NCBI RefSeq assembly: GCF_044647545.1
Contig: NZ_CP172818.1
Strand: one strand, 5' to 3'
Origin: Escherichia coli
Lineage (GTDB): Bacteria > Pseudomonadota > Gammaproteobacteria > Enterobacterales > Enterobacteriaceae
Length of the DNA: 64,000 nt
A program made the translations under genes and the position numbers. This document shows positions 13,945-56,089 of the stretch, piece by piece (positions within the stretch are counted from its first letter, which is position 1; each line of letters starts with the position of its first letter). The notes under the pieces are model-generated. The model worked only from the letters and a program-made list of their open reading frames with translations, was not told the DNA's origin and ran no database searches.

Positions 13945-14844
13945 TTAAATTGCTGTAGTCGTAAATAATTCGTTGAGCATGCGTTTCACACCAACCTGCC
14001 AGTCAGGCAATACAAGCGCAAAATTCTGCTGAAATTTTTCTGTATTAAGGCGAGAGTTATGTGGACGACGAGCTGGTGTAGGATAGGCAGTTGTTGGTAC
14101 TGCGTTGAGCTTGTTGAGTGCAAGAGGAATGCCTGCATTGCGCGCCTCTTCAAAAACCAGCGCAGCATAATCGTACCAGGTTGTGGTACCACTGGCTACC
14201 AAATGGTACAAGCCTGCGACATCCGGTTTATTCAGTGCGACACGAATGGCATGTGCCGTACAATCAGCCAGCAGTTCAGCACCTGTTGGCGCACCAAACT
14301 GATCATTAATAACGGCTAGTTCTTCACGCTCTTTTGCCAGACGCAACATCGTTTTGGCGAAATTATTTCCTTTACCTGCATAGACCCAGCTGGTACGGAA
14401 AATTAGGTGCTTCGCACAATGCTCTTGTAATGCTTTTTCTCCAGCTAACTTGGTTTCACCGTAAACATTTAGCGGTGCGGTTGCATCCATCTCCAGCCAT
14501 GGCGTGTCGCCATTTCCAGGGAATACGTAGTCAGTTGAGTAATGAATTACCCAAGCCCCAACTTCATTTGCCGCTTTTGCAATTGATTCAACGCTAGTCG
14601 CATTGAGTAATTGTGCAAATTCGGGTTCTGACTCAGCCTTATCTACTGCGGTGTGAGCCGCAGCATTAACAATAACATCAGGTCGAATTCTTTTGACTGT
14701 TTCAGCCACACCTTCAGGGTTACTAAAATCACCACAGTAATCAGTGGAGTGAACATCAAGAGCAATCAAATTACCCAGAGGTGCCAGAGCACGCTGTAGT
14801 TCCCAACCTACCTGCCCTGTTTTGCCAAAAAGGAGGATATTCAT
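13945..14844 (-). CDS. rfbD: dTDP-4-dehydrorhamnose reductase
   Basis: 299-aa [23 protein letters not shown]...; recognised as RfbD. Confidence 0.9.
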   Translation of the reverse strand: MNILLFGKTGQVGWELQRALAPLGNLIALDVHSTDYCGDFSNPEGVAETVKRIRPDVIVNAAAHTAVDKAESEPEFAQLLNATSVESIAKAANEVGAWVIHYSTDYVFPGNGDTPWLEMDATAPLNVYGETKLAGEKALQEHCAKHLIFRTSWVYAGKGNNFAKTMLRLAKEREELAVINDQFGAPTGAELLADCTAHAIRVALNKPDVAGLYHLVASGTTTWYDYAALVFEEARNAGIPLALNKLNAVPTTAYPTPARRPHNSRLNTEKFQQNFALVLPDWQVGVKRMLNELFTTTAI

Positions 14845-15929
14845 TACTGGCGGCCCTCATAGTTCTGTTCAATCCACGATTGATAGGCACCACTTTTCAC
14901 ATTATCAACCCATTTTGCATTAGCCAAATACCATTCCACCGTTTTACGAATCCCACTCTCAAACGTTTCCTGTGGTTTCCATCCCAATTCGCGACCAATC
15001 TTCTCAGCATCAATCGCATAACGGCGATCATGCCCTGGGCGATCAGCAACATAAGTAATTTGCTCACGATAAGATTTCTCTTTCGGGACTATCTCGTCCA
15101 ACAAATCACAAATAGTCAGCACAACATCGATGTTTTTCTTTTCGTTGTGTCCGCCAATGTTATAGGTTTCACCCGCTTGACCTTCAGTAACTACGGTATA
15201 TAACGCACGCGCATGATCTTCAACATACAGCCAGTCACGAATTTGATCCCCTTTGCCATAAATAGGTAATGCCTTACCTTCCAGAGCATTAAGAATTACT
15301 AGTGGAATCAATTTTTCCGGAAAGTGATAAGGACCGTAGTTATTCGAACAGTTAGTCACAATAGTCGGTAAACCATAGGTACGTTTCCACGCGCGGACTA
15401 AATGATCGCTGGATGCTTTTGATGCGGAATAAGGACTACTAGGCGCGTAAGCTGTCGTCTCAGTAAAGAGGGGTAATTGTTCTTTATTATTTACTTCGTC
15501 AGGATGAGGCAAATCACCATAGACTTCGTCAGTAGAAATATGATGAAAACGGAAGCTATTTTTCTTGTCGCCATCAAGAGCAGACCAGTAATTGCGAGCC
15601 GCTTCCAAAAGGACATAAGTACCAACAATATTGGTTTCAATAAATGCCGCAGGGCCTGTAATTGAACGATCCACATGGCTTTCAGCAGCCAGGTGCATCA
15701 CTGCATCCGGCTGATGCTGAGCAAAAATCCGCGCCATTGCAGCAGCATCGCAAATATCCGCATGTTCAAAAACATAGCGTTCAGAGTCAGAAACATCAGC
15801 AAGTGATTCCAGGTTTCCGGCGTACGTTAATTTATCGACATTAACAACACTATCCTGCGTATTATTTATAATGTGACGAACTACAGCAGAACCAATAAAT
15901 CCTGCGCCCCCAGTAACAAGTATCTTCAC
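14844..15929 (-). CDS. rfbB: dTDP-glucose 4,6-dehydratase
   Basis: 361-aa [23 protein letters not shown]...; SDR fold; first gene of the rfb operon. Confidence 0.9.
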
Positions 15930-16004: not shown

Positions 16005-16043
16005 CACGCTACCGCCCCTGGCTTTACAGCTACCAGAGCACTG
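16005..16043 (-). promoter_or_regulatory. JUMPstart element with ops site (RfaH recruitment) in the rfb operon leader
   Basis: Minus strand reads cagtgctctggtagctgtaaagccaggggcggtagcgtg; ops GGCGGTAGCGTG at 16005-16016. Confidence 0.85.
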
Positions 16044-16301
16044 CATGCATTCCTACGATGTGACGAGCGTTACCCACTCGCGCTTAACTCGAAAAATTCA
16101 AGCGCTAATTGTCTTACCAATCCGCTCTGGAAACAAGGAAAATCCTGGAAAACTTTGACTAAAATCCTATTGCTAAGTCGTTGTTATTCTGATTGTTTAT
16201 ATAAAACAACGGCAGGAAAATTCGCAACAAATTACTTTCGCCGCTAATCTTCACTGCCGTTATAATTTTCTTATCAACCGTTACATCCGGTCAGATTTTC
16301 A

Positions 16302-25643: not shown

Positions 25644-25743
25644 GTCGTTACCCTTTTTCAGGCAATAGTTGGCCCTGACCGAAACGGCCAATTTTGTTTT
25701 TTCGTTATTTACCGGAGAATTAATCCGGTTGATTATTCAACGG

Positions 25744-27182: not shown

Positions 27183-28406
27183 TTATCCCCGAATATCATT
27201 TATAAATTGACGTAACACGTTCTCTTTATCGAGCGTGCGTTCGGCATATTCACGTGCCACCGTGTTGTGTTTGGGCAGCAGGAGCGCCTGACGAATCCCC
27301 GCCACCAGCGCCTCGACCGATTCCGGTTCCACGCAAACCGCAATGCCCGGAAAGGTTTCGCAAAGCTGTCCCAGTTCTGTGTGGGCTTCAGCAGTAATCA
27401 CCGCGTTACCGCCTACCGCCAGAATATTGGTCAGTTTCGACGGCAATACGGCATCTGCCGCGCCGCGTTTTTGCACCACCAGATGGCAATCGCCCATCTT
27501 CAGCAGTGCGGGTAAAGCGTCATATGATTGCAGCGGAAAAAATTGCATGTTGCGCAGTCCACGCTGCTGCGCCATTTTTTCCAGCCGCGCTTTGCCGCCG
27601 CCCTGCCCGACAATGGCAAAAATAAGCGGTTCATCGCGCAGGCGATCGGCAGCTTCAATAACGTTTTCCAGCCCCTGCTTTTCACCAATATTGCCGGAGT
27701 AAAGAATGATTTTTTTGTTATCCGGCAGGGCAAGCTGGTTACGAAGGTCGTCAACATCGGCGTCTGCAACATGTTGAAAACGGGCGATTTCCGACCAGTT
27801 GGGGAAGAAGATGACGTTTTCTGCCGCCACGCCTTTTTCGATGGCTTTATTCATCATCGAACGCGAAATCGTGGAGACGTTATCGACGTTATGCAGTCCG
27901 CTACGTTCGAACGCCGTCGCCAGCTGTGCCACTTTGCCGCCTTTGCCTTTTCCGGCAAGGCCCAGCCCCAGCATGGCGTCCACTTCGTAATCCTGAATAT
28001 GCAGCACCGTGCGCGCACCAGACAGTTTCGCCAGCAGGCGCATTCCCGGCGTGCAAAACAGCGTTGGCACCACGCCGATAATGCGATCCGGCTTCCAGCG
28101 ACGTTGCGCCATCAGCGGAAAGAAACTGCTGGCGGCAAAACTGCCGAGATGCAACAGGCGTTTCAGGGTGCTCGGCTGTTTTGGCACGTACAGCGGGCAG
28201 CGCCACACCGTGGCGGCCCCCTCTTCTCGTTTGTACCGCCAGGCGGAATAGTTCTCGCCCACCTGCCATTGCGGGTAGTAAGGCGGTGCGGTAATAACCC
28301 GCACCTCATGACCTTGTGCCGCCAGCCATTCCACCATCTCGCCGGTGTACTTGCCGATGCCGGTTAACTCCGGCGAGTAGTTAATGCCGTAGACCAGTAT
28401 TTTCAT
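27183..28406 (-). CDS. wcaI: Colanic acid glycosyltransferase WcaI
   Basis: 407-aa ORF; GT4-type glycosyltransferase. Confidence 0.9.
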
Positions 28407-55430: not shown

Positions 55431-55611
55431 AAGAAATCCTTTCTTAGAGAATTATTGAGGTCCGGTATCATACCGATTGCAATAATGAAATAAGAGCAAA
55501 CGAAGAAACTTTCAGAATTAGGCCCGGCGGCGCAGAAAATTTTGCTATTCGCCTCGCAAGAACGGAGAGCCGTCGATTGACACTAAGGGCGGAGTGACAT
55601 AATTTCAGGAG

Positions 55612-55760
55612 TGAGGGTTAGGGAGAGGTTTCCCCCCTCCCCCTGGTGTTCTTAGTAAGCCTGGAAGCTAATCACTAAGAGTATCACCAGTATGATGACG
55701 TGCTTCATCATAACCCTTTCCTTATTAAAAGCCCTCTTCTCCGGGAGAGGGTTTCCCGTT
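55612..55760 (+). ncRNA. sibA: SibA antisense sRNA (type I antitoxin of ibsA); boundaries approximate
   Basis: Plus-strand promoter TTGACA 55577-55582 and -10 near 55598-55605; terminator hairpin ccctct/agaggg plus T-run at 55731-55760; fully overlaps ibsA on the opposite strand. Confidence 0.55.
55652..55711 (-). CDS. ibsA: Type I toxin IbsA, 19-aa hydrophobic peptide
   Basis: Minus-strand ORF translates to MMKHVIILVILLVISFQAY. Confidence 0.8.
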   Translation of the reverse strand: MMKHVIILVILLVISFQAY

Positions 55761-55947
55761 TCAGCGTCCCGCTGAAATCGTCGGCTTACCTCCTTTCGCC
55801 CTGAATGCAGTCTATCGCTAACGCGTGAACAAAATAGTTTCCCCTGTGATTATTGCGTAACGTCTCGCAAAGAATATTTGCTCGCAGGATCGCAGACTAC
55901 AAAGCCTGCGGATTGACAATCTGATTGTGAAGGCATACTTTCAGGAG

Positions 55948-56089
55948 TGAGGGTAGAGCGGGGTTTCCCCCGCCCTGGTAGTCTTAGTATGCTGGCCAGC
56001 TAATCACTAAGAGCACCACGATGATGATCCACTTCATCATGACCCTTTCCTTATTTAAGGCCCCTTCCTCGGGAGGGGCTTTCCCGTTT
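55948..56089 (+). ncRNA. sibB: SibB antisense sRNA (type I antitoxin of ibsB); boundaries approximate
   Basis: Second copy of the sib repeat: promoter TTGACA 55913-55918, terminator hairpin plus T-run about 56058-56089. Confidence 0.55.
55984..56040 (-). CDS. ibsB: Type I toxin IbsB, 18-aa hydrophobic peptide
   Basis: Minus-strand ORF translates to MMKWIIIVVLLVISWPAY. Confidence 0.8.
   Translation of the reverse strand: MMKWIIIVVLLVISWPAY

Follow-up and report, generated by a model that had tools for sequence, protein, structure and literature searches.

Two JUMPstart/ops elements in the leaders of the O-antigen (rfb) and colanic acid (wza-wcaM) operons of an Escherichia coli genome

The stretch of Escherichia coli DNA that we analyzed (64,000 nt of contig NZ_CP172818.1, hereafter the window) contains two copies of the classical 39-bp JUMPstart sequence, which very probably load RfaH at the rfb and wza-wcaM leaders. 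Both copies serve as markers for the 5' ends of two large surface-polysaccharide operons and for the dependence of these operons on RfaH, and they indicate that the rfb unit is separate from galF and that the wza leader is long and untranslated. Both elements and this interpretation are already known and are textbook material: the 39-bp JUMPstart element, including the K-12 rfbB copy, was reportedly described by Hobbs and Reeves in 1994, and the account of JUMPstart/ops by Bailey et al. in 1997 is said to be textbook knowledge now. What we add is modest and comparative, namely that wza-linked and galF-linked JUMPstarts are distinct subtypes across enterobacterial genera and that the part of the wza leader that follows ops is constrained.

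Results

Two full-length JUMPstart sequences with perfect ops elements

The initial annotation of this DNA had placed 39-nt JUMPstart sequences on the minus strand at 16005-16043, upstream of rfbB, and at 40086-40124, upstream of wza, and both locations proved exact to the nucleotide in an Rfam scan. The JUMPstart family (RF01707, gathering score 35 bits) matched the rfb copy with 60.0 bits (E 2.6e-11) and the wza copy with 57.3 bits (E 1.6e-10), in each case over its full length (model positions 1-38 of 38), and the scan found no further JUMPstart match in the window. Read on the minus strand, the 39-mer of the rfb leader (16043..16005) is CAGTGCTCTGGTAGCTGTAAAGCCAGGGGCGGTAGCGTG and that of the wza leader (40124..40086) is CAGTGTATTGGTAGCTAAAAAGCCAGGGGCGGTAGCGTG. 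On re-inspection, the ops 12-mer GGCGGTAGCGTG was present without mismatch at the 3' end of both 39-mers, and throughout the 64-kb window it occurs exactly at these two places only, where ~0.008 exact matches would be expected by chance (64 kb, both strands). Both ops copies also conform to the pattern GGCGGTAGnnTG, with the C3:G8 pair, G4, G5, T6, A7, U11 and G12 all in place. The copies had been said to differ at about five positions; pairwise comparison of the 39-mers gave exactly five (positions 6, 7, 8, 17 and 18), i.e., 34/39 identity, and the likeness between the rfb and wza intergenic regions is confined to the 39-mer. RefSeq genomes carry no annotation at either 39-mer.

The ops core GGCGGTAG occurs five times in the window compared to 1.2 expected. 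The three octamers outside the JUMPstarts, at 27413-27420(-) in wcaI (sense), 40677-40684(-) antisense to yegH, and 58993-59000(+) in mdtB, were rejected as ops sites because they are inside coding regions and because those at 27413 and 40677 are without the ops 3' half. Intragenic ops-like sites have been reported not to bind RfaH.

Both elements are intergenic and are found on the sense (non-template) strand, in predicted untranslated leaders and on the same strand as the downstream genes. Each is a non-coding, full-length match above threshold that precedes a polysaccharide cluster, as is expected of JUMPstart family members. The distance from the end of the rfb element to the rfbB GTG is 76 nt, with 75 nt between ops and this codon; from the wza element it is 178 nt to the wza ATG, and the 5' end of the wza ops is 190 nt before this codon (40097-39907). 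rfbB is followed by rfbD, rfbA and rfbC, and all genes from rfbB to wbbL (15929-4262, ~11.7 kb including IS5) and from wza to wcaM (39907-17370, ~22.5 kb) are on the minus strand. Each locus has a long downstream multigene operon encoding envelope or secreted components, as is characteristic of RfaH-controlled operons. The yegH gene (+ strand, start 40566) is divergent from wza. The galF-rfbB region and the region upstream of wza are each 100% identical to many RefSeq genomes.

A poor Shine-Dalgarno (SD) sequence in the first gene, which is a usual but not strictly defining trait of RfaH operons, was found for both wza and rfbB. The anti-SD duplex of wza has a predicted energy of -1.6 kcal/mol (rank 29 of 30 genes, the second weakest in the region), and that of rfbB, which has a GTG start, -3.3 kcal/mol (rank 23 of 30). 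These weak SD sequences are consistent with the reported recruitment of ribosomes by RfaH to leaders that lack an SD (PMC5995543).

Table 1. Features at the rfb and wza loci (positions refer to the window).
Feature	Coordinates	Strand	Basis or remark
JUMPstart, rfb (O-antigen) leader	16005..16043	-	RF01707, 60.0 bits
ops GGCGGTAGCGTG, rfb leader, RfaH recruitment and pause site	16005..16016	-	Exact match
JUMPstart, wza-wcaM (colanic acid) leader	40086..40124	-	RF01707, 57.3 bits
ops GGCGGTAGCGTG, wza leader	40086..40097	-	Exact match; -190 spacing as in CFT073
rfbB, GTG start, first rfb gene after the element	14844..15929	-	Annotation of identical RefSeq sequence
wza, ATG at 39907, first wza-wcaM gene	38768..39907	-	Annotation of 99.99% identical sequence
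galF	17195-16302	-	
galF intrinsic-terminator-like hairpin, then U-rich tract	16206..16263	-	Folding and cross-genus alignment
Candidate rfb promoter TTGTTT-17-GACAAT	16108..16136	-	Inside conserved island (16101-16144)
wza upstream islands	40307..40408	-	40408-40391; 40367-40343 (TGTCAAC..AAAGAAACTCCTAAAA); 40326-40307 (CTTAATATAATTCTTAAAAA)
Candidate wza core promoter	40254..40284	-	Invariant columns CTTGCCTG ... CTG.AACA.T in 17 sequences
wza leader, ops to start codon, without Shine-Dalgarno	39908..40085	-	Conservation; anti-SD duplex

Published evidence for RfaH at the two leaders

The claim that both operons are antiterminated by RfaH is supported by the perfect ops sequences, the full JUMPstart matches and the position of the elements in sense-strand leaders, as well as by published ChIP-seq data, in which the same GGCGGTAGCGTG in the O-antigen and wza leaders of strain CFT073 is listed as RfaH-bound (PMC9765446). 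The ops of the CFT073 O-antigen leader was bound by RfaH in the wild type strain (PMC9765446), and the distance from the start of the wza ops to wza in CFT073 is 190 nt, as it is in the window (PMC9765446, Dataset S2). RfaH was found at CFT073 wza only in a Δhns ΔstpA strain, the promoter being silenced by H-NS in rich medium, and wza-wcaM was termed a likely cryptic RfaH-regulated locus (PMC9765446). Because occupancy at CFT073 wza was seen only without hns and stpA, the wza element appears to be idle in ordinary culture.

Previous studies showed that RfaH targets only operons with the 12-nt ops in an untranslated leader, that its binding site within a paused elongation complex is on the non-template strand, and that the K-12 rfbB ops works as an ops+ reporter (PMC2871177). 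The ops bases involved in RfaH recruitment are C3, G4, G5, T6, A7 and G8, of which G4, G5, A7 and G8 are essential; C3:G8 is the stem of a DNA hairpin whose T6 is flipped out and accommodated in a pocket of RfaH, and pausing at U11 depends on G12 (PMC5995543). Colanic acid synthesis has been described as JUMPstart/RfaH-controlled (PMC9976346, PMC3101779).

Comparative survey of JUMPstart sequences

We searched one genome per species with the pattern TGGTAGC N5-7 GCCAGGGGCGGTAG and classified the resulting loci with the Wza, RfbB and GalF proteins of the window as probes. The survey yielded at least 120 loci, almost all of them in Enterobacterales. Among the 120 matches listed, 30 had wza downstream, 56 had galF upstream and 34 were at other loci, and the arrangement seen in the window was shared by 86 of these 120 JUMPstarts from other genomes. 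The survey pattern fixed the stem positions other than position 8, and at position 8, among the matches listed, T was found in 26 of the 30 wza-linked copies and C in 54 of the 56 galF-linked copies (Fisher p = 1.3e-15). Within the same listed matches, the loop of galF-linked copies was always 6 nt and began with TG in 51/56, mostly as TGT.., and wza-linked loops were 5-7 nt and often began with TA. Judging from these comparisons, the five differences between the two 39-mers are locus-specific subtypes kept across enterobacterial genera. Such locus signatures show that the two elements are old, separately maintained paralogues and not the products of a recent duplication. Within the species, 4140 of 5426 complete E. 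coli genomes, MG1655 among them, carry the wza 39-mer unchanged, and 2178 of 5426 carry the rfb 39-mer unchanged.

Both copies can form the 5-bp stem of the Rfam model, cUGGu/gCCAg, with C-G versus U-G as the outer pair. Folding together with the surrounding sequence gave a minimum-energy structure other than this stem, and the wza copy was about as stable as shuffled sequences (z of -0.11).

Five JUMPstart matches were on short non-enterobacterial contigs: L019, L020, L108 (Arthrobacter), L033 (Erysipelotrichia MAG) and L065 (Peptococcaceae MAG). Four of the five carry an E. coli-like galF or rfbB (96-100% amino-acid identity), and the L033 contig gave no GalF or RfbB match. These contigs are likely assembly contamination.

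A galF terminator and a candidate rfb promoter

The galF hairpin listed in Table 1 has a dG of -30.3 kcal/mol (z = -7.09 compared to shuffled sequences). In an alignment of 18 galF-JUMPstart regions, its stem, AACGGCAG/CUGCCGUU, was kept in other genera by means of two-sided changes, for example AACGACAG/CUUGUCGUU, GCGACAGCC/GGCUGUCGC and GCGGUGGC/GCCGCCGU, and its inner stem-loop (16244-16224) was terminator-like by consensus scan. This hairpin is the galF terminator, and rfb therefore has its own promoter and constitutes a transcription unit separate from galF. A match of the plant microRNA model MIR8001 (E 0.013) to the same site was dismissed as spurious.

Between the galF terminator and the JUMPstart there is only one conserved island, GATTTTCCTTGTTTC..ATTGGTAAGACAATTAG, which is kept in Escherichia, Citrobacter, Salmonella, Enterobacter and Intestinirhabdus. 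The candidate rfb promoter within it predicts a transcription start at ~16101. The start of the O-antigen transcription unit of CFT073, 67 nt ahead of ops (PMC9765446), is equivalent to ~16083 here, and both estimates are upstream of the JUMPstart.

Conserved islands upstream of wza

The initial annotation also held that the wza leader is long, with a transcription start upstream of 40124. Counted from the JUMPstart, the leader measures at least 218 nt to the ATG, and we infer on good grounds that transcription starts upstream of 40124, because ops must be transcribed in order to work and because the sole promoter-like islands shared across genera are at 40408-40254. Four conserved islands were apparent in an alignment of 17 sequences from Escherichia, Citrobacter, Salmonella, Atlantibacter and other Enterobacteriaceae (Table 1). 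The island closest to wza contains a candidate promoter composed of TTGCCT (40283-40278), a 17-nt spacer and the extended -10 sequence TGT-AACACT (40263-40255), which reads TGC-AACAAT in other genera. Transcription from this promoter would start at ~40248, giving a predicted leader of ~341 nt in which the JUMPstart would extend from near +124. From this island to the JUMPstart, the sequence is too divergent to be aligned (~53% identity).

The other three islands (40307-40408) are probably operators for an activator of the RcsAB type. The RcsAB box consensus is TaAGaatatTCctA (PMC3950696); the conserved islands agree with it at only ~10/14 positions, and no RcsAB box was found upstream of wza when TAAGAATATTCCTA was searched with as many as 3 mismatches allowed.

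A sigma-70 consensus scan missed the conserved islands upstream of both JUMPstarts. The sites that it proposed, TGGAGA-16-CATAAT at 40240-40213, which falls in the divergent sequence between the last island and the JUMPstart, and one within the final part of galF, were rejected because they are unconserved across genera, and the conserved islands are therefore preferred as promoters. Altogether, the conserved islands are probably the promoters of wza and rfb, together with activator boxes in the case of wza.

Two other features were noted in this region. RefSeq annotates a 49-aa hypothetical protein at 40216-40365(+), opposite wza and across the wza promoter islands, which is probably a spurious call. 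Just upstream of the wza JUMPstart, a stem-loop consisting of CCCUUUCUC..GAGAGGG followed by UUUUAAAAAUU (40143-40179(-); dG -13.4, z -2.5) falls inside the predicted leader and is unconserved outside Escherichia.

Constraint in the wza leader between ops and the start codon

MG1655 has the same sequence over all 218 nt that extend from the JUMPstart to the wza ATG (100% identity) and shows ~20 differences in the 300 nt upstream. In comparisons with Citrobacter and Salmonella, identity is 77-88% for the 178-nt leader that follows ops, 55-65% for third codon positions of wza and ~53% for the spacer that precedes the JUMPstart. The identity of the leader thus exceeds that of third positions and spacer, the leader is therefore under purifying selection, and this constraint goes beyond what RfaH recruitment alone explains.

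The most conserved block of the leader, TTTTTAGGACTGATGCCAGTTAAATTT (40025-39998), holds an 8-codon ORF (MPVKFLFN*, 40012-39986) that is preceded by AGGA. This mini-ORF is kept in Escherichia, Citrobacter and Salmonella with a fixed stop and with variation that looks synonymous (four Leu codons, TTT/TTC), and it has 27 codons in the two of three Atlantibacter sequences that could be read. In Mixta, Erwinia and Winslowiella the nucleotide motif persists, but the ATG is lost in 2 of 5 sequences and the peptide is not conserved. A leader peptide is therefore less well supported than an element acting at the nucleotide level.

Searches for RNA structure gave largely negative results. No Rfam family besides JUMPstart matched the wza leader; RNAalifold predicted 16 pairs, none of which showed a compensatory change; a long-range UUGGUAG:CUGCCAA pairing rests on invariant columns only; and whole-leader folds were no more stable than shuffled sequences (z of -1.06 and -1.80). 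CsrA binding at the GGA motifs of the leader was rejected as an explanation, since a published EMSA on the wza 5' UTR was negative (PMC6333774). The pattern of conservation raises the possibility that the 178-nt leader holds a further, undescribed cis-acting element, for which TTTTTAGGACTGATGCCAGTTAAATTT is the candidate, although we regard this as rather unlikely. If it were true, TTTTTAGGACTGATGCCAGTTAAATTT might be a ribosome-loading or standby site for the RfaH-bound polymerase ahead of the SD-less wza and might set up transcription-translation coupling; alternatively, it might bind an unknown regulator.

A mosaic rfb cluster and other features of the window

The O-unit part of the rfb cluster (4165-12909) consists of K-12-like O16 genes (wzx, glf, wzy, wbbI, wbbJ and wbbK), with wbbL interrupted by IS5 (transposase ~4761-5741). 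Strain BS-01 matches this segment at 100% and MG1655 at 99.9% identity. On either side of the segment, the window is 99.98-99.99% identical to the O1 strain FDAARGOS_497, and the upstream junction is in rfbC. For a 4-kb stretch across the rfbC junction, none of the complete RefSeq E. coli genomes exceeded 97.2% identity. On the evidence of these identities, the rfb cluster is a mosaic. A reading of the O-unit as O1 was rejected because its genes are those of O16 with wbbL::IS5. Since wbbL is interrupted, RfaH-assisted transcription of rfb probably yields no O antigen.

At ~42172, the window is without a ~1.5 kb segment that is present downstream of yegH in FDAARGOS_497 and that carries an IS110-family transposase. 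Two SIB antitoxin RNAs (RF00113) were found at 55577-55726(+) (147.5 bits) and 55913-56055(+) (136.8 bits), opposite ibs type I toxin genes and between yegL and mdtA. An algC RNA motif (RF02929, 78.2 bits) is present at 25648-25697(-), within the colanic acid operon and between cpsB and cpsG.

Discussion

Our results indicate, with high confidence, that the two 39-mers are JUMPstart elements that load RfaH, by a mechanism that is established for the JUMPstart/ops family and that we infer for these two copies. RNA polymerase would start at a promoter upstream of the element, transcribe into ops and pause at U11, ops being a consensus pause sequence as well. The non-template ops bases would form a small hairpin, with a C3:G8 pair, a G4-A7 loop and T6 flipped out, which autoinhibited RfaH would recognise and bind, whereupon its C-terminal domain would be released and refold. 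RfaH would then stay on the polymerase for the rest of the operon, where it would exclude NusG, and hence Rho-dependent polarity, suppress pausing, counter H-NS and help to recruit ribosomes to first genes without a Shine-Dalgarno, and the distal genes of the ~12-kb and ~22-kb operons would thereby be expressed. Initiation would be controlled separately, with wza needing Rcs activation or relief from H-NS silencing, and the wza element would matter only once this Rcs/H-NS-controlled promoter fires. The rfaH gene itself is outside the window.

We considered whether the 39-mer might be mainly a structured RNA element, acting through the Rfam stem, with recognition of ops DNA by RfaH being secondary. 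This is improbable. The stem cUGGu/gCCAg is part of the Rfam model and both copies can form it; furthermore, the lone difference within it (C versus U at position 8) keeps the pairing with G26, and position 8 was always a pyrimidine in the 120 JUMPstarts among the matches listed (C in 85, T in 35). However, the stem is not the predicted fold in context, its stability is unremarkable, and mutagenesis and structures have shown that recognition takes place through a non-template DNA hairpin within ops (PMC5995543). An RNA stem acting in addition to ops is possible.

It is less probable still, and indeed very unlikely, that the wza copy is a relic without present function and that RcsAB and H-NS, acting at the promoter, are the sole determinants of colanic acid expression. 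In wild type CFT073 grown in rich medium, wza is neither transcribed nor bound by RfaH, as a relic would predict, but RfaH does bind there once transcription is derepressed (PMC9765446). The high frequency of the identical wza 39-mer among complete E. coli genomes (4140 of 5426) also speaks against decay, as does the retention of ops bases 9-12 (CGTG), which the survey pattern left unfixed, in 27 of the 30 wza-linked copies among the matches listed; moreover, the element is invariant while the surrounding spacer is unalignable. That the two copies reflect chance similarity or a recent local duplication with no regulatory meaning has next to no probability and is already refuted by the statistics and the comparative data. 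Apart from the shortness of the motif, nothing favors chance, and against it are two perfect 12-mers where ~0.008 are expected, both inside 39-mers with Rfam E-values of 1e-10 to 1e-11; a recent duplication is contradicted by the five differences, which are locus signatures across genera and mark the copies as old and separately maintained.

The preferred reading, i.e., RfaH loading at both leaders, places the two elements among well-characterized systems. The rfb copy is closest to the K-12 rfbB JUMPstart/ops, with which it shares the galF-rfbB position, the ops 12-mer, the RF01707 match and the downstream rfbBDAC genes, and the window further resembles K-12 in having O16 genes with wbbL::IS5. 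Unlike K-12, however, the window has a galF-rfbB region that is 100% identical to the O1-type strains ATCC 11775 and FDAARGOS_497, and its flanking backbone is not that of K-12. The wza copy is matched by the wza-wcaM ops of CFT073, a different strain, in its 12-mer, its 190-nt distance and its operon, although wza is a pseudogene in the sequenced stock of CFT073.

The hlyCABD, kps (group 2 capsule) and rfaQ/waaQ operons follow the same RfaH logic and likewise have the core GGCGGTAG in a leader that is not translated. The hly and kps ops sequences differ at positions 10 and 12 (GGCGGTAGCATG and GGCGGTAGCATA) and their leaders are longer, the hly UTR being 768 nt (PMC9765446). In group 1 (K30-type) capsule strains, a galF-linked JUMPstart in the galF-wzi region heads a Wzy-dependent operon that includes wza (PMC6128206). 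There, the capsule locus replaces colanic acid beside galF, whereas in the window wza has its own element of the wza subtype ~24 kb from galF. Finally, in the lambda N/nut and Q/qut systems and in the Nus system of rrn operons, a factor is likewise loaded in a promoter-proximal position and rides on RNA polymerase to suppress termination, but RfaH differs from these in that its target is the non-template DNA strand and not RNA, that it works on its own and that it takes the place of NusG.
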